From Bacteroidales bacterium (lineage in GTDB: Bacteria; Bacteroidota; Bacteroidia; Bacteroidales; VadinHA17): a DNA stretch of 58,646 bases. Below, one piece after another: positions 27,209 to 48,677 of this stretch (its first letter is position 1; each line of letters opens with the position of its first letter). The translations under genes and the position numbers were made by a program. The stretch covers positions 17,019 to 75,664 of the forward strand of contig JAWLFR010000002.1 of assembly GCA_041685495.1 (NCBI GenBank), in the 5' to 3' direction. A model generated the notes under the pieces. The model was not told where the DNA came from. It made no database searches and was given only the letters and a program-made list of their open reading frames with translations.

Positions 27209-27212
27209 GCGT

Positions 27213-27416
27213 ATGAAGATAACACTTAATAACAGGCCGGAAGAGTTTGACGGAGACAGTATGACTGTTACAGAAATGCTGGAGAGGAAAAAATTCAGCT
27301 TCAGAATGCGTATAATTAAGATCAATGGCAAACTGGTTAAAAAGCAGGACTATGATAAGGCCGTCATAAAGGACGGTGATGATGTGCAGATGCTGTACCT
27401 TATGAGCGGTGGCTGA
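27213..27416 (+). CDS. ThiS/MoaD-family ubiquitin-like sulfur carrier (C-terminal GG)
   Basis: 67 aa ending in ...LYLMSGG. It starts 4 nt after the E1-like gene. Confidence 0.8.
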   Translation: MKITLNNRPEEFDGDSMTVTEMLERKKFSFRMRIIKINGKLVKKQDYDKAVIKDGDDVQMLYLMSGG

Positions 27417-27455
27417 CAAATTGATTATCCGGAGTTTTTATTATAGGTTTGCAAT

Positions 27456-27800
27456 ATGAACGATCTTATCAGGGGTAATATAAATAAGATACCACCGGTA
27501 CTGCGAAACAGGTACTTCCTTACAGTGCTGGTCTTCCTGGTATGGATAATTCTTTTTGATAATAATAACCTTGTAAACAGGTACCGTTACATGAAGAACC
27601 TGCGTCAGCTGGAAAATGACAGGGAGTACTATATGGAAAGGATTGAAGAGGACAGCCGCAAGCTCAATGAGCTTAAAACCAGTGATGAGAACCTGGAGAA
27701 GTTTGCCCGGGAAGAATATTTCATGAAGAAGGATAATGAGGATATATATATTATCGTAGACGAGGACGGCAACAGGGTGGATGAGTTAAAAAAGAAATAA
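27456..27800 (+). CDS. FtsB/DivIC-family septum formation initiator
   Basis: 114 aa: one TM helix followed by a coiled coil (LRQLENDREYYMERIEEDSRKLNELK...EKFAREEYFMKK). Confidence 0.75.
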   Translation: MNDLIRGNINKIPPVLRNRYFLTVLVFLVWIILFDNNNLVNRYRYMKNLRQLENDREYYMERIEEDSRKLNELKTSDENLEKFAREEYFMKKDNEDIYIIVDEDGNRVDELKKK

Positions 27801-27835
27801 ACCGGCCTTAAGGGGATATCTCTCAGGGAGTACCT

Positions 27836-27944
27836 TTCAGGGGAACCGGCTTACAGAGGGATCAGCTTTCAAAAAATCAAACTTCAGGGGAACCGGCTTA
27901 CAGAGAGATCAGCTTTTAAAAAATCAAACTTCAGGGGATGACCG
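27836..27944. repeat. 47-bp tandem repeat (2.3 copies) duplicating the 3' end and stop codon of the GT2 gene
   Basis: Units at 27836-27882 and 27883-27929 differ at 2 of 47 positions, and a third partial copy starts at 27930. TCAAACTTCAGGGG (stop plus the last codons, reverse strand) occurs at both 27877 and 27924. Confidence 0.85.
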
Positions 27945-29195
27945 TTCCAGACGGCGGTATACAGCAAGCAGCTCTTTTGCTCCATGCGCTTTATGTTCCA
28001 CACCATTCAGCCGCAGCATAGCCCCGGCAGCCGGCACCACCGGCATCTTTTCATGGTAGCCCCGGGCATGAACAAAATTAAGGTACTTAACTATCCTGAA
28101 CATATTAAACCAGGTAAAGAAGCGCTTTGTGAAAGATTCCTCTGATGATGTGTTATTACGTATCAGCCTTAAGTTATCCGGCCAGGAATTCATAGTCAGG
28201 AATTCCTTCAGTCCCGGATTGAACCCGGACATCAGTTCACCGGCAGGTCTTATATCCTGGCTGTAATAATTCTTTATGCCGGCAAAGAATTGCCGCAACA
28301 CGGAAAAAGCATCAGGGTTATAGCTCATATAATCATTCATTTTTCCGGCAAGCATGCTGTTTATCACCGGACCGGTACCGAATGGCACTCTCAGCGAGGC
28401 CCTGGGGGAGGGCTTCACAACTGTTGTGTTAAGATAAAAATACCCGCCTGCCGGCACCAGTTTTTGAATAAAATAAAAATCTTCGGCTCCCTGCCTCTTG
28501 CTCATACCTCCTGCCCTGACATAATGCCTGGCTTTCACGGCAATAGCAGATCCCAGGGTATGAAAGACCCATGGATAGCCGGTATATTTCAGTGAGCGGT
28601 AATAATACCTGAGGTGCAGCTCATACTGCAGTATTGCCCTGTAAACACCTTCAGGCATATCTCCTTCCTGCGGATGTTCAAAATATACAGAGCATGCTTT
28701 ATGCTGATCATTTTTATACAGCCTTTCATACAGTTCAACAAGGTAATTCGCAGACACTGTGCAGTCGGCATCAAGTGACACTATCACGCCTTCAGGCTGA
28801 TCAATGCTGCTGAACCTTCTCACGGCCTCATCCATGGCCATCTTCCTTGCCATACCCACGCCCCATCCCGGCAGTGTCATCCTACCTGTATTATGCCATA
28901 GCAGCCTTATAAATGAATTATTATTTCGCCTCTTCCATTCAGAAAGGCCTGTGCATGTACGCTCATTCTGCTCCAGCTGTGCCGGAGTGGCATGGACGGG
29001 GGCATTAACAAGCACTATCAGTTCGACGCTGCAGGGAGGTTTTGTACAGTTAAGAAGGGAATCTATAGTGTTAATAATCCCGGCTTCATCAAAAGCCGGG
29101 ATTATAATTATTAGTGCGGTATCTTTTTCCGGTGTACCTGTAGACAAAGGTCTGCTTATTGCTTTGTCTTCAAGGTACCTGGATGCAAAATCCAT
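27924..29195 (-). CDS. Family 2 glycosyltransferase
   Basis: 423 aa. GT2 N-terminal signature IIIIPAFDEAGIINTIDSLL and a DxD-type segment VSLDADC. Confidence 0.75.
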   Translation of the reverse strand: MDFASRYLEDKAISRPLSTGTPEKDTALIIIIPAFDEAGIINTIDSLLNCTKPPCSVELIVLVNAPVHATPAQLEQNERTCTGLSEWKRRNNNSFIRLLWHNTGRMTLPGWGVGMARKMAMDEAVRRFSSIDQPEGVIVSLDADCTVSANYLVELYERLYKNDQHKACSVYFEHPQEGDMPEGVYRAILQYELHLRYYYRSLKYTGYPWVFHTLGSAIAVKARHYVRAGGMSKRQGAEDFYFIQKLVPAGGYFYLNTTVVKPSPRASLRVPFGTGPVINSMLAGKMNDYMSYNPDAFSVLRQFFAGIKNYYSQDIRPAGELMSGFNPGLKEFLTMNSWPDNLRLIRNNTSSEESFTKRFFTWFNMFRIVKYLNFVHARGYHEKMPVVPAAGAMLRLNGVEHKAHGAKELLAVYRRLERSSPEV

Positions 29196-35491: not shown

Positions 35492-36331
35492 TCAATGAGT
35501 GCCGGCAAAAATATCCTCCCTGACGGCAGGTATAAGGCCGGTGGCCACGGCTTTCTCATACAGTATCTTCACTGCCGCCCTCCCCCTGTCACCAAGGTTA
35601 CGACTGAAATCATTAACATACAGATCGATATGTTTTTGCATGACATCCCTTTCCATGGAAGCAGCGTATTTTTTTATAAACTCGTATGATGATAATGGGT
35701 TATTATATGCATAATCAATGCTTGCGGCAAGTATATTATCCAGCTTAACGGCCATATCGGGACCCAGGCTTCTCTTTACGGCTATCCCGCCCAGGGGTAT
35801 CGGCATTGATGTCAGTTCCTGCCATGCTTCACCAAGGTCCCGTATCTTAACCAGGCCCCTGTCGCGATAGGTGAACCTGTTCTCATGTATCAGCAGTCCT
35901 CCTGCTGCCTCCCCTTTAAGCACAATATCTTCAATATCGGAAAAGAGATACTCTTCTTTCAATGTAAGGTTTGGATAGATAATGCCCATTAATAAATTGG
36001 CCGTTGTGTAAATTCCGGGTATCGCAATTCTTCGGCCAACTAGGTCAGAAGCGGGCATCTCGCTTCCGGCCACCAGGAGGGGACCGTTATTAAAGCCCAG
36101 GGCAGAGCCCGCATTAAGTAGTATATAGTCCTGGGACACATAAGCGTAGGCATGGTAACTTATCTTTGTTATATCAAGCTCCGCATTGAAGGCATGCCTG
36201 TTAAGCTCTTCAACATCTGTAAGTTTACAATCGAAGTCAATTTCACCTGTATCTGTCTTTCCATTGACCATTGCATCAAAAACAAAGGTGTCATTGGGAC
36301 AGGTTGATATTCCAAGGCTCAGTGTTCTCAT
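35492..36331 (-). CDS. mqnD: 1,4-dihydroxy-6-naphthoate synthase (futalosine pathway)
   Basis: Start placed at MRTLSLGISTCPNDTFVFDAM (Met17 of the ORF). Periplasmic-binding-protein-like fold motifs typical of MqnD (DITKISYHAYAYV). Confidence 0.85.
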   Translation of the reverse strand: MRTLSLGISTCPNDTFVFDAMVNGKTDTGEIDFDCKLTDVEELNRHAFNAELDITKISYHAYAYVSQDYILLNAGSALGFNNGPLLVAGSEMPASDLVGRRIAIPGIYTTANLLMGIIYPNLTLKEEYLFSDIEDIVLKGEAAGGLLIHENRFTYRDRGLVKIRDLGEAWQELTSMPIPLGGIAVKRSLGPDMAVKLDNILAASIDYAYNNPLSSYEFIKKYAASMERDVMQKHIDLYVNDFSRNLGDRGRAAVKILYEKAVATGLIPAVREDIFAGTH

Positions 36332-36449
36332 AGTATTTTTTTTGTATCCCCCGGCAGTTTCAGCACGACATATTATCATCCCGGCATAGCTGACTGCCTC
36401 TCTTATTATATTATCCTCTTTCGCGTACGGCTTAATCCCTTTCCCGGCA

Positions 36450-37121
36450 TCAAATTACCTGTGCCAGGATACGTCCGGCAGCCTTTCCCAGCTCCTCCAG
36501 GGCCAGGGGTATATCCCATTCAGACCTGTCCCTGGGCCCTACCATGTTTGATACAGACCTTATGCCTGCAAAGGGTATGCCCTCATTACTGCAAACATAA
36601 TATACAGCTGCGCCTTCCATAGTTTCAATATCAGCGTCAAAGACCGATAACAGCTCATCACGTTTCTCAGCTGACCCTGTTGCAGTACTCACCGTCACAG
36701 CTTTTACCCGCGGCATATCATCAGGCATCATATCTATTATATCCTTTCCCGGGCAATAGGGTCCTGAAGGGGTAAACTTATCATCAATACCTTCAATACC
36801 TGCCAGGTGCAGCGGTATAAACCTGTCACCGTCAGCCACACCCAGGTCGGCAAAACGGTCTTCTGCCGGCAGAAGGACGGTTCCGGGCGGATAATAATTC
36901 CGATAGCTGCCTGCTATACCTATATTAACAAGCAGGCGGGGAGTGTTGTTTCGCATCAGGTAATTCATTATGGCATAGCTTGTTGACACCGGCCCCACCC
37001 CTGTTATAAGCTTTTCCACACCTTCGGTTAATCCCGGTGTTGAACCAGTGCCACCGGCCACTATGCCAAGGCATTCCATTTCCTTTTCCGTTGCTGCAGT
37101 TATCAATACAATATTGCTCAT
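36450..37121 (-). CDS. mqnB: Futalosine hydrolase / MTA-SAH nucleosidase family
   Basis: 223 aa. PNP_UDP-type motifs: ITGVGPVSTSYA, NIGIAGSY, ETMEGAAV. Adjacent to mqnD. Confidence 0.75.
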   Translation of the reverse strand: MSNIVLITAATEKEMECLGIVAGGTGSTPGLTEGVEKLITGVGPVSTSYAIMNYLMRNNTPRLLVNIGIAGSYRNYYPPGTVLLPAEDRFADLGVADGDRFIPLHLAGIEGIDDKFTPSGPYCPGKDIIDMMPDDMPRVKAVTVSTATGSAEKRDELLSVFDADIETMEGAAVYYVCSNEGIPFAGIRSVSNMVGPRDRSEWDIPLALEELGKAAGRILAQVI

Positions 37122-37212
37122 CCGCCATAATTAATTCACAAGTAATGAATAAAGATATTGTTTTTCCGGATAAAAAAGGTAAAATTTGAGGCAAACAAAA
37201 ATGTGTTGTATC

Positions 37213-37623
37213 ATGGTTTATCTTACCAGAAGGGAAAGGTTCAGTGCCGCACACAGGATGTTCAGAACTGAGTTCAGCGATGAAAAGAACACCGAGCTGT
37301 ATGGACAGTGTTCAAACCCGGAGTGGCACGGGCATAATTACGAGCTGTATGTTACCATTAAGGGAGAGATTAACAGGGAGCTGGGATATGTGATGAACCT
37401 TAAAGATCTCAAAAAGATAATCCACGAATATGTTATTGAACCTCTTGACCACAAGAATATCAACACCCAGGTGGCGTTCATGAAGGGCAGGCTTGCATCA
37501 ACCGAGAATATTGCAATAGCCATATGGGAGGTTCTTGAGCCACGGATAAAGGAAGAAGGAGTGGAACTTCACTGTATAAAGATTACGGAGACAGAAAATA
37601 ATTTCATAGAATATTACGGATAA
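37213..37623 (+). CDS. queD: 6-carboxy-5,6,7,8-tetrahydropterin synthase / PTPS family
   Basis: RERFSAAHRM, CSNPEWHGHNY, LDHKNIN. Start placed at Met10 of the ORF. Confidence 0.85.
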   Translation: MVYLTRRERFSAAHRMFRTEFSDEKNTELYGQCSNPEWHGHNYELYVTIKGEINRELGYVMNLKDLKKIIHEYVIEPLDHKNINTQVAFMKGRLASTENIAIAIWEVLEPRIKEEGVELHCIKITETENNFIEYYG

Positions 37624-37634
37624 AAATTTAAATA

Positions 37635-38273
37635 ATGGAGATAATTAATAACGGCTCGGGTTTTCATGATGATGGTGGTTATACCAAAGTGGAAAAATGG
37701 GACGATAAGAAGACAGCGGATATGGCGGAGCTGTACCGCGGTATACTTGAAAACATAGGAGAAGACACGCAGAGAGAGGGACTGAGGGATACTCCCAAAA
37801 GGGTAGCCAAGGCCATGCAGTTTTTAACCCAGGGTTATAATCATGACCCGCATGAGATATTAAAAAGCGCCATGTTCAGGGAGGATTACCGTCAGATGGT
37901 AATAGTTAAGGATATAGAAATGTTTTCCCTCTGTGAGCATCATATGCTCCCTTTTTTTGGCAAGGCTCATGTGGCATATATACCGGATAAATATATCACC
38001 GGTCTTAGCAAGCTTGCAAGGGTTACCGAAGCTTATGCACGGCGTCTGCAGGTGCAGGAAAGGCTGACCACTGAGATAAGGGACTGCATACAGGAAACAC
38101 TGAACCCGCTGGGTGTGGCCGTTGTCATTGAAGCGCAGCATATGTGTATGCAGATAAGAGGTGTACAAAAGCAGCATTCGGTTACAACAACCTCTGCTTT
38201 CACCGGCTGCTTCCTTGAACATATACAGACACGTGAGGAATTTATTCATTTAATAGGACAAAATTTACATTAG
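37635..38273 (+). CDS. folE: GTP cyclohydrolase I
   Basis: [44 protein letters not shown]. Confidence 0.95.
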
Positions 38274-38274
38274 T

Positions 38275-39162
38275 ATGAAGGCATTTGTATTCCCCGGACA
38301 GGGAGCACAGTTCAGTGGTATGGGAAAAGACCTGTATGAGTCTAAAGATATATGCAGGGAGATGTTTGAGAAGGGAAATGAGATACTTGGTTTCAGGATA
38401 ACTGATATACTTTTCGATGGTACTGATGATGATCTTAAGCAGACAAAGGTAACACAACCTGCCATATTCCTTCATTCAACAATACTGGCCGAGGCCCTGG
38501 GCAGTGGCTTTGCCCCGGATATGGTTGCAGGCCATTCGCTGGGTGAGTTTTCAGCCCTTGTTGCAAACCGCTCGCTGTCTTTTGAAGACGGACTGGAGCT
38601 TGTATTCAAGAGAGCGCTTGCCATGCAGAAAGCCTGCGAAGCAAGGCCATCATCCATGGCAGCCATAATAGGACTGGATGATGCCATAGTGGAAAAAACA
38701 TGTGAGATGATTGATGATATTGTTGTTCCGGCCAATTATAACAGTCCGGGACAGGTAGTTATTTCAGGCACTGACAGTGGCATTGACAGGGCTATTGAAA
38801 TACTGAAAGAGAAGGGTGCCCGCAGGGCCGTTAAGCTGGCCGTGGGTGGGGCCTTCCATTCGCCGCTGATGGAGCCTGCCAGGATGGAGCTGGAACAGGC
38901 TATTAACGAGACAGAGTTTGCCAAACCCATATGCCCTGTATACCAGAATGTATCGGCCAGAGCTGTGGATGATCCCATAGATATAAAAGCCAACCTTATT
39001 GCCCAGCTCACTTCACCGGTATTATGGACACAGTCGGTGCTGAACATGATTAAAGACGGGGCTGATCATTTTACAGAAGTGGGTCCCGGCAATGTACTGC
39101 AGGGACTGATAAAGAAAGCAGACAGGAAGGTTGAGCTTGAATCAGCAAACAGCCTTGTCTAG
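38275..39162 (+). CDS. fabD: ACP S-malonyltransferase
   Basis: FPGQGAQ, GHSLGEFSAL, VISG, GAFHSPLM. Confidence 0.95.
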   Translation: MKAFVFPGQGAQFSGMGKDLYESKDICREMFEKGNEILGFRITDILFDGTDDDLKQTKVTQPAIFLHSTILAEALGSGFAPDMVAGHSLGEFSALVANRSLSFEDGLELVFKRALAMQKACEARPSSMAAIIGLDDAIVEKTCEMIDDIVVPANYNSPGQVVISGTDSGIDRAIEILKEKGARRAVKLAVGGAFHSPLMEPARMELEQAINETEFAKPICPVYQNVSARAVDDPIDIKANLIAQLTSPVLWTQSVLNMIKDGADHFTEVGPGNVLQGLIKKADRKVELESANSLV

Positions 39163-42100
39163 GTAATATATCCTTCTCCTTCCGCTTCAGCTTCTCCATC
39201 CTCTGCCTCTCCTTTACCTGGCTTGATGATAACACCTTTCTGTATGCGGCCATCTATCATTATACCCAGTGGCTTGCTGAACCTTACATGACGTATATAT
39301 TCATCCTGGTATACATGCTCTGTATTATTCAGGAAGTCAACATCATAATAACCCTCATTAATAAAGGGGTTAATAGTAAAATACCCTACCCTGAAGGAGG
39401 TGATATTCTGAAAGAAGTGTGTACCCTGGCTGGGATCTATCCGGTAATCAGGAAGTCCTGATTCAACTATAACCCTTGCCTGTGATATCTGCGGCCATTT
39501 GATGGGTATGCCTAACCAGGGGTCTGTTGAACCCCAGCGGCCGGGACCCACCAGTACATAATTCTTCAGACTCTTTACAAAATCATTATTGAGCTTTTCA
39601 AGCAGCACCGCTATCTTTTCATTATTGCTGGCCCTGAATGACTCCGGCTTAACATATATAAGGTCATAAATACCCCTTATAACCCCGTTCCCAAGGGCTG
39701 AATCAGACATAATAATTGTATCCTCCTTTTTAACATCTGTGATATTTATTTTCTGCGTCTGGTCGCCTTCCACAATAGGTCTTATCTGCAGAAAATTAAA
39801 GATATTAGGCAGACGGGCTTCTGTCTCAAGGTTAGCCGCAAACTCGATCTCTATAGGGTTGCCCATCTCTTTCTGTCCAAGCTCCAGCAGGAATTGCAGC
39901 ACCTCAGCCAGGGGAAAAGAGCTGTGTTTGAGTATATTGTCAAATGTTATTATACGCTTACCTTTATGTAGTATACCCGGCCTTATGACATTATTATGCA
40001 GGTCGTATGTTGACGCCACCTTTTTTAAAGTACTTTCACTTACCTCATCATTTATTTTAAGCTTCTTGATATTTACCCCGTCATCAACACTCGGAACAAA
40101 GCTGTCTGTGTCAAGGTCGAGGGCGTAATATACTTTTTGTGTCTCCTTCAGTGCAGATGCAGGGCTGCTGAGCTGTAATATCTTACCGGGATATTTAGGC
40201 GAGAAACGCAATGATACGCCCCCGTCAACTATCAGCTTACCCAGTCCCATTGCAATATTTGCAATGCCGTCTTCAGCTTTTTCGGAACCTATGGGGTAGA
40301 AATTAATTGAACGTGCCACACCCGATAAGGTAGGATAATAAATGTCGCCATGCTTATTGCCGCACACTTCCTGCAATATGATCCCCATTTTTTCCTCATC
40401 TATCACATTGGCTGTGGCGGTCATATAAGCCTTACTGCCCTTGTAAAAAACAGAAGCATATACCTCTTTTATTGCATCAGACAGCATTTTTACCATCACA
40501 GTGTTATCAGCCACACGTGGTATCATATAGGTGGAATATATACCTGCAAAAGGCTGGTAATGACTGTCTTCCAGTTTGCTTGATGAGCGCACTGCTATCG
40601 GCACCTGATTGGATACCGCCAGGAAGGCATAAAGATCCTGGTACACCCAGCCCGGCAGTTCGGCCTCCACAAACTTTTTCAGTATCTCATCATCCGGCAG
40701 GTCGCTTATTCCCACCTGGTAAAGGTTATTCCTTTCCATGTACTCATCGAACACATCGGTACTCAGCACTACGGTGCGGGGTATGGTTATCAGCAGTCCG
40801 GGATACTTATGAAACAGCTTATGTTTTTTTATTATGCTGTTAATAAATGCCAATCCCCGGGCCTTTCCCCCTATTGACCCTTCACCTATCCTGCTGAATA
40901 TCTGGTACTGGTCAAAGGTATTACGGTCAAATTTGGCTATCACCCCCCTGCCCTTGCCAAGTCTGAAACTGGATATTGCCACATATATGAACCTTCTCAT
41001 ATCTTCCATTGACTCAAAGTCGTCCATCCGGATAAACTTAAAAAGCTGTGCCACGGGAAACAATGCCCTTGCATTGAGCCACTTTGAGAAATGGTTACGC
41101 TCAGCATGGTAAATTAGTGATTTATCAGGCAGTGTCAGCAGTTTATTCTGGAAACTATGCAGGTCGGTAGCAATACCTATGGACTCCATGGTATCGGGAT
41201 TCCTGAATATAAAGGGCCCAAAAGCAAGGTTTTGTATAATAAAGTTCCTCAGCTCAATGGACAGGTTCTGTGAATATTTATTCAGGAAGCCCACCTCCAG
41301 TTCATCGGCTATCTTTTTAGACTCAGCATCCGACGACTGCAGGAGCAATGGCATATTGCTGTCGTCTTTCTTTATTATCCTGCACAGGTCAATGCCTGCA
41401 TCTGTTTTAAGTACACCGTCTTTTTTATAGGAGATATCAGATATCACTCCCAGAACATTATATTTATACTTTTCATATAGTGCCATGGCATCCTCAAAAT
41501 TGGTGGCCAGCAGTATTTTAGGCCTGCCTCTCATCTTAAGCATCTTCTGGTGCGGGTTAAGTGCCTCCTGCTGAAAATCCCTTGACTGCTTAAGAATAAT
41601 CTTGTACAGGTTGGGCAGGTAGGAAGACACATAGCGTATTGAATCTTCCACCAGTATAATAGCCTGTACGCCTACCACATCTATATCATACTCGGCATTC
41701 ATCCTGTCCTCCAGCAGCTTGATGACAGCCAGCAGCAGGCTGGCTTCGCCCAGCCAGCAGAATATATAATCGACGGCACTGACATCTTCTTTTTGCAGCC
41801 TCAGCGACACCTCGCGCGAGAAGTAGGTAAGGGCCACAATAGGTATGGATTCATATTTCTCCTTTATCTTACGGGCTATGGCAAAAACATCCTTTTCCCT
41901 GAAATTAAGCATTGATATAACAAGGTCTATCTGCTCTTCCTGAAGTATCTGCATTGCCTCATCCTCACTGTCTGTCTGTATAAAAGAGGGAGGATACCTG
42001 AGGTTGAGCGATACGTATTCATTGAATATCTGCTCATCTATACGGCCATCCTCTTCAAGCATATAGTTATCGTAATTACTGCATATAAGCAGAACCTTAT

Positions 42101-42185
42101 GTATGCGTTTTTGCATTAAAAGGTTAAAAGAAGTATCACTGAAGTCATACTTCTGCAATTCCATTATTCCTTCTACTATTGCCAT
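39159..42185 (-). CDS. Large REC-like x2 + PPDK_N-type ATP-grasp ('PEP/pyruvate-binding domain') protein, paralogue A
   Basis: 1008 aa. Receiver-like modules (KVLLICSNYD...DLVISML; AIILVEDS...GVISDIS). ATP-grasp motifs GSIGGKARGLAFIN, PIAVRSSSKLEDS, QPFAGIYSTY, IEIEFA...LQIRP. A C-terminal domain carries GPGRWGSTDPWLGIPIKWPQISQA...SQGTHFFQN, followed by an acidic G/E/A tail. No TSHAA-type swivel motif is present. Confidence 0.8.
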   Translation of the reverse strand: MAIVEGIMELQKYDFSDTSFNLLMQKRIHKVLLICSNYDNYMLEEDGRIDEQIFNEYVSLNLRYPPSFIQTDSEDEAMQILQEEQIDLVISMLNFREKDVFAIARKIKEKYESIPIVALTYFSREVSLRLQKEDVSAVDYIFCWLGEASLLLAVIKLLEDRMNAEYDIDVVGVQAIILVEDSIRYVSSYLPNLYKIILKQSRDFQQEALNPHQKMLKMRGRPKILLATNFEDAMALYEKYKYNVLGVISDISYKKDGVLKTDAGIDLCRIIKKDDSNMPLLLQSSDAESKKIADELEVGFLNKYSQNLSIELRNFIIQNLAFGPFIFRNPDTMESIGIATDLHSFQNKLLTLPDKSLIYHAERNHFSKWLNARALFPVAQLFKFIRMDDFESMEDMRRFIYVAISSFRLGKGRGVIAKFDRNTFDQYQIFSRIGEGSIGGKARGLAFINSIIKKHKLFHKYPGLLITIPRTVVLSTDVFDEYMERNNLYQVGISDLPDDEILKKFVEAELPGWVYQDLYAFLAVSNQVPIAVRSSSKLEDSHYQPFAGIYSTYMIPRVADNTVMVKMLSDAIKEVYASVFYKGSKAYMTATANVIDEEKMGIILQEVCGNKHGDIYYPTLSGVARSINFYPIGSEKAEDGIANIAMGLGKLIVDGGVSLRFSPKYPGKILQLSSPASALKETQKVYYALDLDTDSFVPSVDDGVNIKKLKINDEVSESTLKKVASTYDLHNNVIRPGILHKGKRIITFDNILKHSSFPLAEVLQFLLELGQKEMGNPIEIEFAANLETEARLPNIFNFLQIRPIVEGDQTQKINITDVKKEDTIIMSDSALGNGVIRGIYDLIYVKPESFRASNNEKIAVLLEKLNNDFVKSLKNYVLVGPGRWGSTDPWLGIPIKWPQISQARVIVESGLPDYRIDPSQGTHFFQNITSFRVGYFTINPFINEGYYDVDFLNNTEHVYQDEYIRHVRFSKPLGIMIDGRIQKGVIIKPGKGEAEDGEAEAEGEGYIT

Positions 42186-42187
42186 AA

Positions 42188-45100
42188 TTATTTACATTCT
42201 GTACATTCTATTACGGATACACGTTTCCTGCCGTCCATCCTGACCACCAGGGGCGACTCAAATTCGATGTGTTTAAAGAAGCGCCCGCTGCTGACAGGCT
42301 TCTGCCTGTTAAGCCTGTCCCAGTCGATAAACCCGTCACGTGATGCATGGTCTACAGACAGGTATCCCACATTCATTGATGTTACATTATGGAAAAAATG
42401 AGATCCCAGTGAAGCATCCAGGGGGAAGTCCGGGAGGCTGACCTCCACAATGACCCCGGCCTGTGATATCTGGGGCCATACCACAGGTATGCCAATAAAC
42501 CTGTCGCGGGTGCCCCACCTGCCTGGTCCAATCAGTATATATTTTTTCTTCTTTGCCAGCATTTTATCGTTTATGCTGTCTATCTCTCTTGCCATTTCCT
42601 CAGTCTGTGTATTATCGAATTTACCGGGATCAATATAAATAACATCATAAATATTATCTATCTTGCCGTTACCCATGCTTGTCTCGGATAAAAGCAGGCA
42701 TTTCTCCCTGTCAATCTTTTCCAGATTAATATTATAACCTGCCCCGCTGCCAACCAGTGGCTTCACCTGCAGCAGGTAAAAACTGGCCATTCCGTTTTTG
42801 TCACGCTTCAGGTCAACGGCATACTCTATCTCCACCGGTGTGCCGAAGGCTTCCTTCACCACATCAAGCACCGTCGCTATTGTTTCTGCCAGCGGTATAT
42901 AATTATACCTCAATATATTGGCAAAATTAATAACCCTGGGGCCATAGCTGTCCAGGCCGGACTCAATAGTGTCGTTATCAGGATTATAAACTGAAGCACA
43001 GTGCTTGAGCGTTCCATGTCTCTCCGCATCTGCTATCTCCAGTTTTACCAGGCCGGCATTTTCTCCTTCAAGCAGGTTTACATTCTCCTTCTTCATATCC
43101 ACCGCATAAAAATATACCTGGGTGTTTTTTGAAAGATCCTTCTGTGAGACTATCTCGAGGTCAGGATAAGCAGGAGAGAACCTGAAGGCTTTCTCCCCTT
43201 CCACAACATACTGTCCCAGTCCCACTGCCGCCACGACAAAGCCCTCTTCAGGCTTCATATGGGCAACAGGGTAAAAATTATATGACTGGGCGGTGCCGCT
43301 TATATGGGGATAGAAGGCGTCCTCGAACCTGTTACCGACCACCTCCTGCAGCACTATTGCCATCTTCTCCTGTTCAATCATATAATTAATAGCCTCAAAA
43401 TATGTGCGGGCACTCTTTGAATATATTGAAGCAAAGACCAGCTTAATAGCATCCATTACTATCTTCAGTCTCACATCAAAGTCAGAGTGGTTATTAGGCA
43501 GCAGGAATGTTCCGAATACACCCGAAAAAGGCTGGCTCATGGAATCTTCAAAGAGGCTTGAGGAGCGTACGGCTATGGGCCTGTCCATCAGCTTAAGGAA
43601 AGAGCGCAGCTTTTTCTCAAGGTTATATGACAGGTTGCTGGACAGGAATTTCCTCTTTAGCTTCTCATAGTCTTTCTCTTTCTTTATTATCTCGCCAAGC
43701 TTGTTTGTCTCGATAAAAAGGTCAAACTCATCGGTGCCGATAATTATTGTAACAGGACTTTTTATATTGATACCAGGTGTCAGTTTACCCAGCTCAAAGC
43801 CGTATATCAGAGTGTTGATAAAGGCCAGTCCCCTGCCCTTGCCTCCCAGCGAACCACTGGCAAGGCTCACCACATTTGTTTCATCTATAGCTGCCGAATC
43901 CACATAATTAACAACCTTGCCCTTGTCCAGCTCGCGCCTTCTTTTAGAAATAAGATCAAGCAGGAAGCTCCTTAGCTCTGACATATCATTGAAATCACTT
44001 ATCTTCATGGGGTTGATAATCTTGGCAATCTTAACTTCACCACGGGCCATAAGCCATAGCGAGAAGTGATTTTTCATTGCATGATAGACCAGTGAATCCT
44101 CCGGTATTGTCTTAAGGTATTGCTCAAATTCATTCATTGATTTGGCCACAGCTATCTGCCTTCCCATATTATCACGGTATACGAAATGACCGAATCCAAG
44201 GTAATAGTTAATAAATGATTTAAGATCCTGCAGCAGGCTCTGTGAATTTTTATTAATAAAGTTTGACTTGAGTGAATGGGCATATTTTGAGTTCTCAGGA
44301 TCAGATGACTGCAGTACTGTAGGCAGGTTGGGCAGCTCACTTTTCACATACTGGATAAGTTCATAACCGGCTTTATCATATGGTTTATTGTTTTTCGGGA
44401 ACCTCATATCTGAAATCACACACAGCATATTATCCTTATACTTCTCATACACCGTTATGGCCTCTTCGTAGGTTGTTGCCAGCAGTATCTTGGGCCTTGC
44501 CCTCATTTTAAGGACCTTATAGAGCTCGTCAGAGCTGACATCCTCTATCAGGTGCTTTGTTTGCTCCATCACCAGTGTATAAAGGGTAGGCAGGTAACTG
44601 GAGTAATACTCGGCAGAGTCTTCAACAAGCAGGATAACGCGGGTTACACCTTTCCTGGTATCATTTTCTACATTAACCCTGTCTTCAAGCAGCTTTACCA
44701 TGGCAAAGAAAACCCTTGACTCACCTGTCCATACAAAATAGTCATCAAAAGGGAAGCCTTTTTCTCTCTTCTCCTTTACAAACTCAACATCACCCGTACT
44801 GTTAAGAAGCAGAAAGGTAGGTATATACGGGTACTTCTGATTTATCCTCAGGCATAGCTTCATGGGATTTTCTTTCTCCACCCCCACCATAACAATGATA
44901 AGATCAAAATGCTTTGATCTGAGCCTGTTCATTGCTTCATCCAGTCCGGATACACCCGTCACCCTGGGCATGGAGGTAAGGTTAAGCTGGTGGTATTCAC
45001 CGAAGATATATTCCGAGAACCGTCCTTCGCCCTCTATTGAATAGGCATCATACAGGTTGGCCACCAGTAATATCTCCTTAACCTTAAAGGGCATAAGATC

Positions 45101-45634
45101 ATGGAAGATATCCCTCTCAGCATTATGTCTTTCAAGGAAGCGCTGCAGCAGTTGCCTGGATGATGTACCGGGCTCTATCTCATCTTCGAAAGTAGCCGTT
45201 TCGGTAATATCCATCATGTCCCTGGCAAGGATGCTGTTTATAAAACCTGTTATCAGGCTCGCCAGGTTTTCAATAAGGTCTTTTTCCTCCGGCAGGAAAG
45301 GCCCCGTATCATCATGTTCAAATTCACTGGTATAAAAAACCTCTATTGACCCCCTGGTATTATTGATGGTTGTAAACTGCCTTTTAAGCACCCAGCTTGT
45401 CTCCTCGAAATCAGATGTGGTAAAAACCTTATTGCCATATGTTATCCTTGCCACGGTGAACTGCGGATACTGCCATGCCGGCGGTAAGGTGTGGACTATC
45501 TTCTGCAGTGTCTCATCAATGGACTTTCCTTCTTTTATTATGGCTGTTGTACGGTTAATACATGCCAGTTCTTTCAGCCTTTCCTGCTGATCCTGCAAGA
45601 GTTTATTAAATCCGTTTTCCTGGGTCTTATCCAT
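42188..45634 (-). CDS. Paralogue B of the REC-like + ATP-grasp protein, with an extra N-terminal sensor-like module
   Basis: Start placed at MDKTQENG (ATG at 45634), because the upstream part of the ORF is the korB terminator. The N-terminal module reads LKELACINRT...PPAWQYPQ...GSIEVFY...GPFLPEEKDLIENLA. The rest is collinear with paralogue A (GSLGGKGRGLAFIN, PIAVRSSSLFEDS, GPGRWGTRD...GIPVVWPQISQA...GSHFFHN). The stop is 2 nt before the ATG of paralogue A. Confidence 0.8.
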   Translation of the reverse strand: MDKTQENGFNKLLQDQQERLKELACINRTTAIIKEGKSIDETLQKIVHTLPPAWQYPQFTVARITYGNKVFTTSDFEETSWVLKRQFTTINNTRGSIEVFYTSEFEHDDTGPFLPEEKDLIENLASLITGFINSILARDMMDITETATFEDEIEPGTSSRQLLQRFLERHNAERDIFHDLMPFKVKEILLVANLYDAYSIEGEGRFSEYIFGEYHQLNLTSMPRVTGVSGLDEAMNRLRSKHFDLIIVMVGVEKENPMKLCLRINQKYPYIPTFLLLNSTGDVEFVKEKREKGFPFDDYFVWTGESRVFFAMVKLLEDRVNVENDTRKGVTRVILLVEDSAEYYSSYLPTLYTLVMEQTKHLIEDVSSDELYKVLKMRARPKILLATTYEEAITVYEKYKDNMLCVISDMRFPKNNKPYDKAGYELIQYVKSELPNLPTVLQSSDPENSKYAHSLKSNFINKNSQSLLQDLKSFINYYLGFGHFVYRDNMGRQIAVAKSMNEFEQYLKTIPEDSLVYHAMKNHFSLWLMARGEVKIAKIINPMKISDFNDMSELRSFLLDLISKRRRELDKGKVVNYVDSAAIDETNVVSLASGSLGGKGRGLAFINTLIYGFELGKLTPGINIKSPVTIIIGTDEFDLFIETNKLGEIIKKEKDYEKLKRKFLSSNLSYNLEKKLRSFLKLMDRPIAVRSSSLFEDSMSQPFSGVFGTFLLPNNHSDFDVRLKIVMDAIKLVFASIYSKSARTYFEAINYMIEQEKMAIVLQEVVGNRFEDAFYPHISGTAQSYNFYPVAHMKPEEGFVVAAVGLGQYVVEGEKAFRFSPAYPDLEIVSQKDLSKNTQVYFYAVDMKKENVNLLEGENAGLVKLEIADAERHGTLKHCASVYNPDNDTIESGLDSYGPRVINFANILRYNYIPLAETIATVLDVVKEAFGTPVEIEYAVDLKRDKNGMASFYLLQVKPLVGSGAGYNINLEKIDREKCLLLSETSMGNGKIDNIYDVIYIDPGKFDNTQTEEMAREIDSINDKMLAKKKKYILIGPGRWGTRDRFIGIPVVWPQISQAGVIVEVSLPDFPLDASLGSHFFHNVTSMNVGYLSVDHASRDGFIDWDRLNRQKPVSSGRFFKHIEFESPLVVRMDGRKRVSVIECTECK

Positions 45635-45683
45635 ATAAGGGCAAGAGTTTTTAGAATCACTTAAATATACCTTTTTATCGAGT

Positions 45684-45711
45684 AAAAAAAAAGGTGTTCC
45701 GAAGAACACCT
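45684..45711 (-). terminator. Rho-independent terminator after korB
   Basis: 8-bp stem AGGTGTTC/GAACACCT (45692-45699 and 45704-45711) with a CGAA loop. On the minus strand a run of 8 T (45684-45691) follows. Confidence 0.8.
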
Positions 45712-45815: not shown

Positions 45816-46832
45816 CTATTTCGACTCCCATGTGGATCCTGACCTGAGCAGGTCATCCACATTCTTAATCTTAGCATCTTCCTGCACCTTCTTAATCTGT
45901 CCTTTTACCGCCATATCGTATGTAGGGGCTGCCACACTGCGTATAATGCCCAGTGCAACAGGATAAGAGGGGTACTTCATATTGGCCAGCATGGTATGCA
46001 GACCGGGTGTATTATCTTCAGCATCATGTACCAGCAGGTCTTTCTCGCTGATACCATTACCTAGCTTAACAACTTTCAGCTTCAGACCCTCCAGCATAAG
46101 TCCCTTGTCATTATCCTTCCCGAATATCATAGGTTCGCCCTGCCTGAGTACGATTGTTGTATCTTCCCTTGTCTGGCGATCGCTCAACTCCTTATGCACG
46201 CCATCATTAAAGATAACACAGTTCTGCAGCACCTCAACAACAGATGTACCCTCAAAGAGGGCTGCCTGTTTGTATATCTCTGTCGACAGTTTAACATTTG
46301 TATCAATGGTACGGGCAAAGAACTTTCCTTTCGAGCCTATCACCAGTTCACCCGGCGAGAATGGTTCTTCCACGGTGCCGTATGGTGATGTTTTTGTCTG
46401 TGCTCCCTTCTGTGAAGTAGGAGAATACTGGCCTTTTGTCAGGCCATATATCTCATTATTAAAGAGTATGATATTAATATCCAGATTACGCCTTATGGTA
46501 TGAATAAAATGGTTGCCGCCGATAGCCATGGCATCACCATCACCTGTAATCTGCCATACACTCAGGTCCGGATTGGCTACTTTCACCCCCGAGGCTATGG
46601 CAGGGGCACGCCCGTGAATACCATGAAAGCCGTAAGTGCTGATATAATAAGGGAACCTGGAAGAGCAGCCTATACCGGATATAAAAGCAAATTTCTCTTT
46701 TGGTATATCCAGATCGGCCATAGCCCTGGTAATAGAACTCAGTATGGCATGGTCGCCACATCCGGGGCACCATCTTACCTCCTGGTCACTCTTAAAATCT
46801 TTTGGATTATAATCAAATTTATTTTCAGTCAT
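45816..46832 (-). CDS. korB: 2-oxoglutarate/2-oxoacid:ferredoxin oxidoreductase beta subunit (TPP-binding)
   Basis: RWCPGCGDH, GIGCSSR, GDGDAMAIGGNH, NNEIYGLTKGQ. Confidence 0.9.
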   Translation of the reverse strand: MTENKFDYNPKDFKSDQEVRWCPGCGDHAILSSITRAMADLDIPKEKFAFISGIGCSSRFPYYISTYGFHGIHGRAPAIASGVKVANPDLSVWQITGDGDAMAIGGNHFIHTIRRNLDINIILFNNEIYGLTKGQYSPTSQKGAQTKTSPYGTVEEPFSPGELVIGSKGKFFARTIDTNVKLSTEIYKQAALFEGTSVVEVLQNCVIFNDGVHKELSDRQTREDTTIVLRQGEPMIFGKDNDKGLMLEGLKLKVVKLGNGISEKDLLVHDAEDNTPGLHTMLANMKYPSYPVALGIIRSVAAPTYDMAVKGQIKKVQEDAKIKNVDDLLRSGSTWESK

Positions 46833-46835
46833 AAC

Positions 46836-48677
46836 TTATTCCTCCAGGATCTTTATGCATTGTTCTTCTATCTCTTTACATGTAAAAGGCAATCCCTGTA
46901 TCTTATTTATCTGTTTAAACTTAAAATCTTCGAACTCCATCTTCAGGTATTTAACAAACTGCCCGGCATTTAATTCGGCCACCACCAGCTTATCAAATTT
47001 CGAAAATATATGAGCTGTATTCTCCGGCAGCGGATTGATATAGTTAAAATGAGCCAGGCTCACCTTCTTTCCTTTTTTGCGCAGTTCACGCACCGCTGTC
47101 AGCAGGTGGCCGTATGTGCCTCCCCAGCCTATAAGCAGAAGGTCGCCCTCAATGTCACCATAGGTCTCAAGAGGAGGCACCTTACTGACCACAGCGGCCA
47201 CTTTACCAGCCCTCATCTTTACCATATGCTCATGATTTTCAGGTATGTACGACACAGTGCCCTTTACTGTTTTTTCCAGTCCGCCAATCCTGTGCTCCCT
47301 TCCTGCGGTACCGGGTACTGCCCATTTCCTTGCCAGTGTTTTTTCATCCCTTTCATATGGAAGATATTCATCATTACCCTCTTTCACCAGCGGCGGGTTT
47401 ATAGCGGGCAGTGAGCTCATGGAAGGTATCCGCCATGGCTCCGAGCCGTTGGCGAGAAAACCGTCTGTCAACAGTACTACCGGCACCATATGTTCAAGTG
47501 CTATCCTTGCTGCTTCAAAGGCATAATGGAAACAGTTGGACGGCGTACTTGCAGCTATCACTACGACGGGACATTCGCCGTTTCTGCCATAGAGTGCCTG
47601 GAGGAGATCAGCCTGTTCTGTCTTTGTCGGCAGACCGGTTGATGGCCCTCCCCTCTGTACATTAACAAGCACAAGAGGCAGCTCGGTCATAACAGCCAGG
47701 CCCAGGGCCTCGGATTTAAGTGCCAGTCCGGGTCCGGATGTGGATGTCACTGCCAGATCACCTGCAAAGCTGGCTCCTATGGCAGTACATATACCTGCTA
47801 TCTCGTCCTCTGCCTGGAAGCTTTTTACGCCCAGGTCCTTGCGCGCCGCAAGAGTCTCCAGTATTCCCGTAGCCGGGGTAATGGGATATGAGCCGATAAA
47901 AAGTTCCAGCCCGGCCTTCTCGGCTGCAGCCAGCAGTCCCCACGAGGTAGCGGTGTTACCGTCAATGGTACGGTACAGTCCCTTCTCAATATCGGCGGGA
48001 CTGACCTTATAAACAGGGCTCATAGCTTCAATTGTCTCACCGTAATGATAACCTGCCCTTAGAACGGCACTGTTAGCTTCTATGATCTTGGGTCTCTTAC
48101 TGAACTTACCCTTGAAATACTCTTCGGTATACTCCAGGTCGCGGCCAAACAGCCAGTACACCATTCCCAGGGCAAACATATTCTTTGTACGCAGCACCGT
48201 CTTGGGATCAAGACCATAATCTTTCAGTATTTCCTTAACCATAGTGCTTATGGGCGCGGAGATAACATTGTACTCGCTCAGCTCGTCTCCTGTCCTGGGA
48301 TCGCTCTCATACCCTGCCTTTTTGATGTTTTTATCGGTAAAATTATCTTCATCTATAATAATTGTACCGCCCTTACGGGTAAATTTCGCATTTGCCTTAA
48401 CTGCTGCCGGATTCATTGCAACCAGTACATCGGCATAATCACCGGGGGTAAACACCTCGGAGTGCCCCACGTGAACCTGGAATCCTGATACCCCTCCAAC
48501 CGTACCCTGGGGTGCCCGGATCTCTGCAGGATAATCCGGGAAGGTAGAAAGGTCATTACCAAAAAGTGCTGAAGTATTGGAAAATAATGTTCCGGTAAGC
48601 TGCATACCGTCACCTGAATCTCCCGAGAAACGTATTACTACTTCTTCCCGTTCGATGACTCGCTCACTCTTACTCAT
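46836..48677 (-). CDS. korA: 2-oxoglutarate/2-oxoacid:ferredoxin oxidoreductase alpha subunit
   Basis: 613 aa, fused gamma/alpha-type architecture (RFSGDSGDGMQLTG...; GSYPITPAT; TSGPGLALK). The stop is 3 nt before korB. Confidence 0.9.
   Translation of the reverse strand: MSKSERVIEREEVVIRFSGDSGDGMQLTGTLFSNTSALFGNDLSTFPDYPAEIRAPQGTVGGVSGFQVHVGHSEVFTPGDYADVLVAMNPAAVKANAKFTRKGGTIIIDEDNFTDKNIKKAGYESDPRTGDELSEYNVISAPISTMVKEILKDYGLDPKTVLRTKNMFALGMVYWLFGRDLEYTEEYFKGKFSKRPKIIEANSAVLRAGYHYGETIEAMSPVYKVSPADIEKGLYRTIDGNTATSWGLLAAAEKAGLELFIGSYPITPATGILETLAARKDLGVKSFQAEDEIAGICTAIGASFAGDLAVTSTSGPGLALKSEALGLAVMTELPLVLVNVQRGGPSTGLPTKTEQADLLQALYGRNGECPVVVIAASTPSNCFHYAFEAARIALEHMVPVVLLTDGFLANGSEPWRIPSMSSLPAINPPLVKEGNDEYLPYERDEKTLARKWAVPGTAGREHRIGGLEKTVKGTVSYIPENHEHMVKMRAGKVAAVVSKVPPLETYGDIEGDLLLIGWGGTYGHLLTAVRELRKKGKKVSLAHFNYINPLPENTAHIFSKFDKLVVAELNAGQFVKYLKMEFEDFKFKQINKIQGLPFTCKEIEEQCIKILEE

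Follow-up and report, generated by a model that had tools for sequence, protein, structure and literature searches.

To our knowledge, in all characterised enzymes with a PPDK_N ATP-grasp domain (PPDK, PpsA, rifampin phosphotransferase and glucan-water dikinase) a histidine on a tethered domain takes up phosphate from ATP and delivers it to the substrate. EI-Ntr (PtsP), a phospho-His phosphotransferase from the PEP-utilising superfamily that carries a GAF sensor domain at its N-terminus, reports nitrogen/2-oxoglutarate status; it uses PEP as donor, has a canonical swivel and TIM barrel, and hands its phosphate to NPr. In tandem-receiver regulators of the PleD type, one phosphorylatable and one acceptor-less adaptor receiver are followed by an enzyme domain, GGDEF. 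PpsA-like kinases carry a PPDK_N ATP-grasp without TIM barrel and phosphorylate or activate a substrate other than pyruvate; rifampin phosphotransferase (PMC4844700) is one of them.

In this work, we describe two adjoining genes, A and B, in a window of 58,646 nucleotides (the whole stretch of DNA that was analysed). They belong to an uncharacterised and very widespread protein family of Bacteroidota, with a shared order of pseudo-receiver, intact receiver, helical linker, PPDK_N ATP-grasp and a C-terminal domain of 185 aa. At least 7997 clusters at 90% identity make up the family, and its C-terminal domain alone accounts for 1657 clusters at 50% identity; with thousands of clusters, chance is ruled out as the source of what is seen in A and B. 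No characterised homologue was found in the full-text literature searched, Pfam, NCBIfam or PDB. The genes and their borders are as follows:

39159..42185, minus strand: gene A, 1008 aa from ATG, encoding pseudo-receiver, receiver, linker, PPDK_N ATP-grasp and C-terminal His domain (ORF, Pfam)
42188..45634, minus strand: gene B, 1148 aa from ATG, paralogous to A and extended at its N-terminus by a GAF-like module
42183..42190, minus strand: A/B junction, made of the B stop, 2 nt and the A start (TAA TT ATG), a tight operon junction read from the sequence
45692..45711, minus strand: terminator-like hairpin AGGTGTTCTTCGGAACACC followed by T9, between the oxidoreductase beta subunit gene and B

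An earlier note, made from the sequence, had taken A and B for paralogues, which BLASTP bears out (375/982 identities, 38%; 693 bits; E = 0). All four motif pairs quoted in it occur in the translations, the architecture that it described was confirmed, and its terminator upstream of B is present as hairpin and T9. The junction reads ...GAA TGT AAA TAA TT ATG GCA.... B may also be read from a GTG (42188..45709), but the ATG is the likelier start because the GTG sits within the hairpin (45711-45692). Orthologues of A share 73-95% identity. The two genes are not an obligate pair: in most genomes the A-type gene stands alone, and B lies beside A in only 16/80 loci.

The part in front of the ATP-grasp comprises the following segments:

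41706..42104, minus strand: pseudo-receiver REC1 of A, residues 28-160 (Response_reg over residues 70-142 in Pfam; alignment to YycF)
41271..41672, minus strand: receiver REC2 of A, residues 172-305 (Pfam E = 3.5e-4 on the isolated segment; conservation in 126 sequences)
41436..41438, minus strand: codon of A Asp250, the predicted phospho-acceptor (Asp in 125/126 sequences)
40878..41270, minus strand: linker of A, residues 306-436 (conserved F-G-x-F...YH...W-L...R motifs; DUF5752-like, the Pfam match being in paralogue B)
44681..45082, minus strand: pseudo-receiver REC1 of B, about residues 185-318 (alignment to A)
44243..44647, minus strand: receiver REC2 of B, about residues 330-464 (ED pair, acceptor Asp in VISDM, SS and K)
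43853..44242, minus strand: linker of B (partial DUF5752 match, residues 497-570)

Response_reg matched A in two stretches (41.3 bits, cut-off 30.2) and B with 21.9 bits, under the same cut-off, and the PleD family of NCBIfam was weakly matched across both receivers. The degenerate state ascribed to the first receiver holds for REC1, where the missing part is the acceptor Asp: the equivalent residues of A, S91/M92, are never Asp in 126 sequences, and B-type proteins have Met at this position, preceded by V/L/I. REC2, on the other hand, keeps its complete catalytic set (E180 D181, D250, S284 S285 and K303 in A). This combination of one phosphorylatable and one acceptor-less receiver ahead of an enzyme domain resembles PleD-type regulators, but in A and B the pseudo-receiver comes first and the output is a dikinase-type ATP-grasp instead of GGDEF, a combination that we did not find on tandem-receiver regulators in the literature searched. 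DUF5752 matched the B linker with 23.3 bits on the whole protein and 30.4 bits on the isolated segment (Pfam cut-off 23). No histidine kinase gene adjoins A/B.

The putative output unit consists of the ATP-grasp and the C-terminal domain:

39771..40877, minus strand: PPDK_N ATP-grasp of A, residues 437-805 (Pfam match over residues 437-821, E = 4e-36)
42749..43852, minus strand: PPDK_N ATP-grasp of B (Pfam match over residues 595-965, E = 9e-39)
39216..39770, minus strand: C-terminal 185-aa alpha/beta domain of A, with invariant LGNG, GxGRWG, D, E, S-x-G-x-H-F-F-x-N and Y
42203..42748, minus strand: C-terminal domain of B, with GPGRWG ... GSHFFHN
39417..39419, minus strand: codon of A His923, at the N-terminus of a predicted helix (117-125 of the AF2 model), candidate phospho-carrier

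The ATP-grasp is homologous to that of PpsA and PPDK, and its motifs (Lys441 of GGK, Arg533 of VRSS with S534 S535, E779-x-E781 and Q800), counterparts of those of E. coli PpsA by motif comparison, are invariant in 126 sequences. Q-x-R (Q800/R802 in A) is replaced by Q-x-K in 14/14 B-type sequences, in which the remaining catalytic and receiver residues are invariant; since Lys stands for Arg in all of them, catalysis by B may differ from that by A. As in PpsA and PPDK, a conserved-His domain comes next on a flexible tether, here of about 20 residues, none of them conserved. That domain has 15 invariant residues including the His of G[TS]HFF, which, as the earlier note had it, never varies (126/126 sequences). 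Although its model is confident (AF2 pLDDT 93.2), the domain is as unmatched as had been stated: no Pfam or NCBIfam model recognises its approximately 185 aa, and neither a profile search of PDB nor Foldseek against PDB and BFVD gave a match. In PDB, where PPDK, PpsA, EI and RPH were included, the best Foldseek E was 0.014 with TM at most 0.27 to unrelated folds, and no chain of these four was in the top 50 hits.

The recurrent neighbour of the family in Bacteroidota is glutamate dehydrogenase. Its gene lies at most 3 kb away, in three arrangements, in 25/50 loci, a count limited to loci with adequate flanks. These loci span Flavobacteriales and several families of Bacteroidales, the arrangement was confirmed in a Phocaeicola that is very common in the gut, and the neighbouring dehydrogenases pass the NCBIfam GDH cut-offs. 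The other half of the loci lack gdh nearby; the window itself is one of these, and several Bacteroides species belong here too. The gdh neighbourhood points to control of nitrogen/carbon metabolism, and to a metabolic link with glutamate/nitrogen rather than the acyl metabolism proposed from fabD. The latter gene is convergent with A, their stop codons overlapping, and its link proved to be local synteny of close relatives (13 loci, always convergent). Upstream of B lies a further pair of genes:

45816..48677, minus strand: two-subunit 2-oxoacid:acceptor oxidoreductase genes (Pfam), upstream of B in 12-13 related loci

These had been called korAB. The general class stands (OAFO_sf of NCBIfam, 660 bits, cut-off 483), but no substrate-specific model passed, and the NCBIfam models do not assign the enzyme to 2-oxoglutarate.

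We tentatively favour, at somewhat less than even confidence, a reading in which A and B are dikinase-type phosphotransferases gated by response-regulator domains and acting on the glutamate/2-oxoacid node, where the gene neighbourhood places the target. The input would be phosphorylation of the second receiver (Asp250 in A) by some histidine kinase. The first receiver would probably help in dimerisation or act as an adaptor, like its counterparts in other tandem-receiver regulators, and B may also sense a small molecule by means of the GAF-like module at its N-terminus. The ATP-grasp, tethered to the family-specific 185-aa domain, would form a self-sufficient two-domain unit acting as an ATP-driven phosphotransferase. 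ATP-grasp and C-terminal domain alone, with Met start and about 570 aa, were found in P0134, P0233, P0246 and P0263, and the same unit opens proteins of about 1600 aa as their first unit. As it occurs without receivers, the receivers are inputs and not an obligatory substrate. Because PPDK_N enzymes use a His on a tethered domain, the candidate phospho-carrier is the invariant His923, which lies next to the glycine-rich GxGRWG loop; the domain has no detectable kinship with phospho-His swivel domains, so the case for this role is one of analogy and conservation. The most likely target would be the control of glutamate dehydrogenase, either the enzyme itself or a governing metabolite. The likeness to EI-Ntr would be functional only, as the donor here would be ATP, and the swivel and TIM barrel are absent.

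Several orthologues are publicly named phosphoenolpyruvate synthase or pyruvate phosphate dikinase, and PPDK_N is indeed present, yet that A and B are such ordinary enzymes is extremely improbable and was rejected on domain content. The ATP-grasp is followed by no more than 185 residues and preceded by two receivers and a linker, and neither PF00391 nor PF02896 matched A or B, also when the isolated C-terminal segments were searched at E <= 10. Pfam, profile-profile comparison and Foldseek agree that the PEP-utiliser swivel and the PEP/pyruvate TIM barrel are absent, so the label is wrong, as the earlier note had argued; NCBIfam PEP-synthase models gave 28-50 bits against cut-offs of 598-883 (TIGR01418, 28-40 against 740). 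A and B cannot make PEP. A swivel that has diverged strongly and gained insertions is a rather improbable identity for the C-terminal domain; the proteins would then be PpsA-like enzymes that lack the TIM barrel only. The domain does take the place that the swivel has in E. coli PpsA, right behind the ATP-grasp and a linker of about 25 residues, with a similar order of secondary structures, a His at a helix N-terminus and loose motifs seen by eye (G-x-G...V-Y-V, L-I-G...D-P-W, I-V-E and a final D-G-R-x-x-x-G-V). However, hhalign of its 133-sequence profile gave a probability of 0.7% against seven genuine swivel domains, in a different register, and 0.3% against PpsA alone; no swivel appeared in the PDB-sequence profile search, in Foldseek or as PF00391.

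Membership of the PpsA-like class of small-molecule kinases or ligases (rifampin phosphotransferase, flavonoid phosphate synthetase, PigC/RedH/HapC), with a substrate that has nothing to do with glutamate dehydrogenase held on the C-terminal domain and the gdh linkage reflecting shared regulation only, seems to us unlikely. These are TIM-barrel-free PPDK_N proteins and the nearest NCBIfam matches (PRK06241-type 'PEP synthase', PigC and RedH, E = 1e-13 to 6e-14), and the output unit also stands alone; but the matches are partial (about 140-190 ATP-grasp residues) and far under cut-offs (40-50 bits against 883-1350). Such kinases keep a canonical swivel His and a dedicated substrate-binding domain, both missing here, lack receiver or GAF inputs and belong to resistance or biosynthetic contexts, whereas A belongs to the conserved core genes and has housekeeping surroundings, outside such clusters. 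We likewise give little credence to a non-catalytic ATP-grasp that senses nucleotides (ATP/AMP, energy charge) and regulates by binding through a C-terminal protein-interaction module. The regulator-like architecture, with two receivers and a GAF-like module, and the absence of a recognisable acceptor or substrate-binding domain would suit it. Pure binding domains, though, usually relax catalytic positions, and here all 126 sequences preserve every catalytic residue of the ATP-grasp, with the Mg/phosphate ligands E-x-E and Q among them; the C-terminal domain keeps its His, Arg, Asp and Glu invariant in an active-site-like manner. That one gene is a decaying duplicate could be imagined from the tandem paralogy and the Lys of B, but is hardly credible: both ORFs are uninterrupted, B orthologues are kept in the 16 loci at 1400-2200 bits, and all 14 B-type sequences share the R-to-K change, with the other catalytic residues invariant. 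The decay that the earlier note had named as a refuting case thus applies to neither gene.

For the gated phosphotransferase that we favour, the remaining input would be the module found in B:

45185..45610, minus strand: small N-terminal GAF-like sensor module of B, residues 9-150 (helix, helix, four strands, long helix; AF2 pLDDT 90.8)

The first approximately 150 aa of B matched nothing in Pfam or NCBIfam, but the resemblance to sensor modules of histidine kinases was borne out by the predicted structure, the top Foldseek hits being GAF domains from sensor histidine kinases (TMq 0.60-0.65, prob 1.0). The module is also fused to Crp-type regulators (cNMP_binding and HTH_Crp_2) encoded between A and gdh, occurs in four copies in P0228 and takes an internal position in P0126, P0144 and P0166.

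The two genes discussed here lie on the minus strand:

39159..42185, minus strand: A, ORF of 1008 aa
42188..45634, minus strand: B, ORF of 1148 aa counted from its ATG

Our reading of the ORFs, their junction (TAA-TT-ATG) and a BLASTP comparison (982 residues aligned with 38% identity; 693 bits) confirmed that A and B are real, paralogous and 2 nt apart, as an earlier note on this DNA had held, and all the motif pairs quoted there were found in the translations. An alternative in-frame GTG for B, at 45709, would add 25 residues and falls inside a terminator-like hairpin. From this hairpin to the ATG of B about 56 nt are left (window 45635-45690, minus strand), and the sequence TATATTTA, about 35 nt upstream of the ATG, resembles TAnnTTTG, the -7 promoter element of Bacteroidetes; a sigma-70 promoter scan is uninformative for Bacteroidota. 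At the other end, fabD (plus strand) and A (minus strand) converge and overlap by 4 nt (window 39159-39162), and because their TAG stop codons share bases there is no space for a terminator between them.

A and B combine a response regulator that carries an enzymatic output, a PpsA-like ATP-grasp enzyme devoid of the TIM barrel and a C-terminal domain that we could not match. This anatomy agrees largely with that proposed from the sequence in the earlier note. The ATP-grasp domain (PPDK_N, PF01326) was found by Pfam in both proteins at near full profile coverage (A 437-821, E = 4e-36; B 595-965, E = 9e-39). As anticipated, the swivel domain PF00391 (GGxTSHAA) gave no Pfam match at E <= 10 on the isolated C-terminal segments of A and B, and the PEP/pyruvate TIM barrel PF02896 had no Pfam match in either protein, where just 185 residues follow the ATP-grasp domain. 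NCBIfam models of PEP synthase (TIGR01418, PRK06464 and PRK06241) scored 16-50 bits against cut-offs of 598-1063, and those of RPH, PigC and RedH 15-51 bits against 999-1350, matching the ATP-grasp domain alone; taken together, these matches span 100-340 ATP-grasp residues at 14-51 bits, with cut-offs of 598-1350. Searched against PDB sequences, A and B gave weak receiver matches only. They share with PEP synthase and PPDK the PPDK_N ATP-grasp domain but have no canonical swivel, no TIM barrel and no equivalog score, so that the label 'phosphoenolpyruvate synthase' is wrong, as the earlier note had argued; with the PpsA-like kinases RPH, PigC and RedH they have the ATP-grasp domain in common, but not the canonical swivel domain.

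Conservation was assessed in an alignment of 126 full-length relatives, of which 112 are A-type and 14 B-type; they came from the related loci and from a library of representatives at 50% identity. In the ATP-grasp domain K441 (GGK), R533-S-S (VRSS), E779-x-E781 and Q800 are invariant in 126 of 126 sequences, and the motifs of A correspond one-to-one to GGK, VRSS, D-I-E and Q-A-R-P of E. coli PpsA. A fixed difference separates the subfamilies at the R802 position of the Q-x-R-P motif, which is Arg in 112 of 112 A-type proteins but Lys in 14 of 14 B-type ones (LQVKPL in B, window about 42770). Given the domain content and the conservation, we rejected three readings: a true PpsA, a pseudogene and a secondary-metabolism enzyme.

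The receiver profile PF00072 reached 41.3 bits in A, over two stretches (cut-off 30.2), and 21.9 bits, under the cut-off, in B, which BLASTP aligns to A with 38% identity across both receiver modules. Isolated segments of A gave two receiver-like modules by Pfam (E = 2.5e-6 and 3.5e-4). Both modules claimed earlier were therefore found, but the first is more degenerate than the altered acidic pocket noticed at the time: its acceptor-Asp site holds S/T/C followed by M, which makes it a pseudo-receiver. The second keeps the complete catalytic set, namely E180/D181, D250 (125/126), S284/S285 and K303 (124/126), with D250 falling near position 52 of the PF00072 profile. Neither the window nor the related loci inspected have a histidine kinase gene next to the operon. 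The linker of B matches DUF5752 (PF19027) partially, over profile positions 20-108 of 208, with 23.3 bits for the whole protein and 30.4 for the isolated segment (cut-off 23); no Pfam match to DUF5752 was obtained in A.

In the scan of isolated segments the last ~200 residues of A and B had no Pfam match. Residues 806-990 of A, searched against 1.84 billion representatives, returned 1657 clusters at E <= 1e-3, of which 341 had E <= 1e-30, and an alignment of 46 diverse copies contains 15 invariant residues, located in the G-x-G of LGNG, Asn61, GxGRWG, Gly87, Glu103, S-x-G-x-H-F-F and Tyr130. The AlphaFold2 model is a confident alpha/beta fold (pLDDT 93.2, pTM 0.91), with the invariant His at the N-terminal end of a helix. 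The tether of ~20 residues that joins this domain to the ATP-grasp domain has zero conserved positions in the 126-sequence alignment.

Such a domain might be a diverged swivel phospho-His domain: it comes directly after the ATP-grasp domain, as in PpsA, its secondary-structure order is similar and there is a loose motif likeness. However, when Foldseek compared the C-domain model with the PDB, the best E was 0.014, TM did not exceed 0.27 and the top 50 contained no PPDK, PpsA, EI or RPH chain; there was no match in BFVD, and a profile search of PDB sequences retrieved nothing relevant. Direct hhalign comparison gave a probability of 0.3% with E. coli PpsA and of 0.7% with seven genuine swivel domains (E. 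coli ppsA, ptsI and PDB alignments). As all of these tests were negative, we keep the swivel reading only as a minor rival. The C-domain has no known relative as far as these tools see, which bears out the view that it is unmatched, and it may represent a new type of phospho-carrier. Two very well-studied modules, the receiver and the PPDK-type ATP-grasp, are united in proteins that end in a confidently folded domain without relatives.

The output unit, that is, the ATP-grasp and C-terminal domains, also occurs on its own, with its own Met start, in proteins of ~570 aa (P0134, P0233, P0246 and P0263 in our library). The ATP-grasp + GPGRWG/GTHFF unit is present twice in three larger proteins (P0126, P0144 and P0166; 1523-1654 aa), where the second unit has diverged to a 'GPGRWGSRGD ... 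SFGTHFFQD' type. These proteins also carry a copy of the N-terminal module of B at an internal position; P0166 has an NTP_transf_2 nucleotidyltransferase domain at its C-terminal end. That the unit is found alone and in other combinations indicates that it is the functional core, to which receivers and sensors are optional inputs, and this argues against the receiver as an obligatory phospho-acceptor.

The first ~170 residues of B had no Pfam match, including none to GAF families at E <= 10. The AlphaFold2 model of the N-terminal module of B (helix, helix, four strands, long helix; pLDDT 90.8) retrieved with Foldseek the GAF domains of sensor histidine kinases as top matches (6ob8, 3cit and 6oaq; TMq 0.60-0.65, prob 1.0, E 7e-3 to 2e-2), followed by phytochrome GAFs and the NifA GAF 8jrc. 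Overall TMq was 0.60-0.68 and prob about 1.0, but E values lay no lower than 7e-3 and ranged up to 0.1, and a full GAF domain is longer than this module; a GAF-like fold is a reasonable assignment from the predicted structure, statistically modest as it is. The module is mobile, being present in four tandem copies ahead of the receivers in P0228 (B-type, 1557 aa), after a PAS domain in the B orthologue of locus L011, and fused to a Crp/FNR-type regulator of ~374 aa in three loci:

L023, 8559-9683, minus strand: GAF-like module + cNMP_binding + HTH_Crp_2
L038, 8559-9680, minus strand: GAF-like module + cNMP_binding + HTH_Crp_2
L027, 2048-3166, minus strand: GAF-like module + cNMP_binding + HTH_Crp_2

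In L023 and L038 the gene for this fusion separates the A-type gene from a glutamate dehydrogenase gene (gdh), which supports the earlier suggestion that the N-terminus of B is a sensor module. A query with this module matched 52 proteins, all of them short. The one inspected, P0393, comes from an assembly full of frameshifts and represents part of a B orthologue; the remaining ones are probably fragments too, so that the query is uninformative on other architectures. A long contig syntenic with the window (L084, ena:ERZ25039539 contig_19746) has every gene fragmented, probably by long-read frameshift errors, and the breakage yields spurious 'hypothetical proteins' of 145-220 aa that are pieces of B orthologues.

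When one genome for each GTDB species was scanned, at least 596 stretches were confirmed among the 600 listed. At least about 600 species-level Bacteroidota genomes have the family as a conserved core gene. The best 79 loci of the scan are nearly all from Bacteroidota, with genera that include Bacteroides, Phocaeicola, Parabacteroides, Prevotella, Alloprevotella, Tannerella, Paludibacter, Lutibacter, Gillisia and Polaribacter. Public records call its members 'PEP/pyruvate-binding domain-containing protein', 'phosphoenolpyruvate synthase' or 'CheY-like chemotaxis protein'. The family is present in Phocaeicola, Bacteroides, Parabacteroides and Prevotella, genera that dominate the human gut, yet databases give it the name of a PEP synthase or of a CheY-like chemotaxis protein. 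Among the matches listed, a B-type gene occurs in 16 of 80 loci, always just upstream of A, and A is single elsewhere. We therefore regard the pair as a lineage-specific duplication and not as the obligate enzyme pair that had been envisaged.

Clustering of all neighbouring ORFs revealed one outstanding recurrent neighbour, a protein of ~445 aa found in 31 loci among the matches listed and scoring above the NCBIfam glutamate dehydrogenase cut-offs. Where at least 3 kb were available on both flanks, gdh lay at most 3 kb away in 25 of 50 loci among those matches. Three arrangements recur: gdh downstream of A in the same orientation (16 loci among the matches listed); gdh and A divergent, with 30-313 bp between them (Phocaeicola, Parabacteroides, Tannerella and Paludibacter); and A between two gdh genes, all three on one strand (Lutibacter, Polaribacter and other Flavobacteriaceae). 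The order in L011 is gdh <- -> B -> A -> gdh. A gut Phocaeicola whose protein occurs in 1446 index blocks of the collection has gdh 234 bp upstream of the A-type gene, in divergent orientation, and a further gdh, with a malic enzyme gene after it, 4.5 kb downstream. There is no gdh in the window, and in several loci of Bacteroides sensu stricto the A-type gene is not adjacent to one. The remaining recurrent neighbours (among them fabD, folE, PTPS and oxidoreductase genes) reach at most 13 loci each among the matches listed, all closely related, and the link to acyl metabolism drawn earlier from fabD is not sustained. The oxidoreductase upstream of B, previously called korAB, belongs by NCBIfam to the '2-oxoacid:acceptor oxidoreductase' subfamily but reaches no narrower model, so that the specific name is plausible, though unproven. 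The strong linkage with gdh offers a concrete and cheap hypothesis for the way in which Bacteroidota tune ammonia assimilation and their glutamate/2-oxoacid balance.

To our knowledge, all characterised PPDK_N enzymes pass phosphate from ATP to an enzyme His and then to a substrate, and we know of no PTS in Bacteroidota. By analogy with that chemistry, the output unit would be an ATP-driven phosphotransferase with His923 as candidate carrier. Phosphorylation of D250 may switch the predicted enzyme, perhaps via dimerisation, as modelled on tandem-receiver regulators, and in B the GAF-like domain would bring in an additional metabolite input. The gdh neighbourhood suggests a target within the glutamate/2-oxoacid node. 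The full scheme, in which the output unit is a new protein-directed dikinase under two-component control (in B also under that of a GAF-bound metabolite) that covalently toggles glutamate dehydrogenase, is in our judgment improbable. Still bolder would be a kinase-independent phosphorelay within one protein, the His domain feeding its own receiver. Rival explanations are that the output unit is a non-catalytic nucleotide sensor or an unrelated small-molecule kinase.

In the full-text literature we found no characterised member of the family, no description of a receiver combined with a PPDK-type ATP-grasp and none of post-translational regulation of GDH in Bacteroidota. The GDH of Bacteroides fragilis undergoes reversible inactivation in vivo. 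For Bacteroides thetaiotaomicron, the title of one study refers to 'trans-acting gene(s)' that affect GdhA activity (Baggio & Morrison, J Bacteriol 178:7212, 1996). In the Bacteroides-type loci readable here the A-type gene either has no gdh next to it or stands upstream of gdh in divergent orientation, so that its connection with the trans-acting gene(s) is possible, not probable. A fragment of ~3 kb is said to have been sufficient in the B. thetaiotaomicron work. No support emerged for the guess that the A-type gene is BT1972: BT1971 is a catalase, and BT1972 is unmentioned in the literature searched. If true, the dikinase reading would supply the missing machinery both for the trans-acting gene(s) and for the inactivation in B. 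fragilis.

As regards the rest of the window, no tRNA or Rfam matches were found within it. Within 35492-38273, menaquinone genes of the futalosine-pathway type (VitK2_biosynth and a PNP_UDP_1 nucleosidase) lie near a PTPS/QueD-like and GTP cyclohydrolase I pair directly upstream of fabD, and synteny of this block extends to close relatives (L001). The sole 2-kb bin with both skews clearly positive (26001-28000; GC +0.165, AT +0.099) coincides with plus-strand ORFs at 25912-27208, the rest of the window consisting mostly of minus-strand genes.
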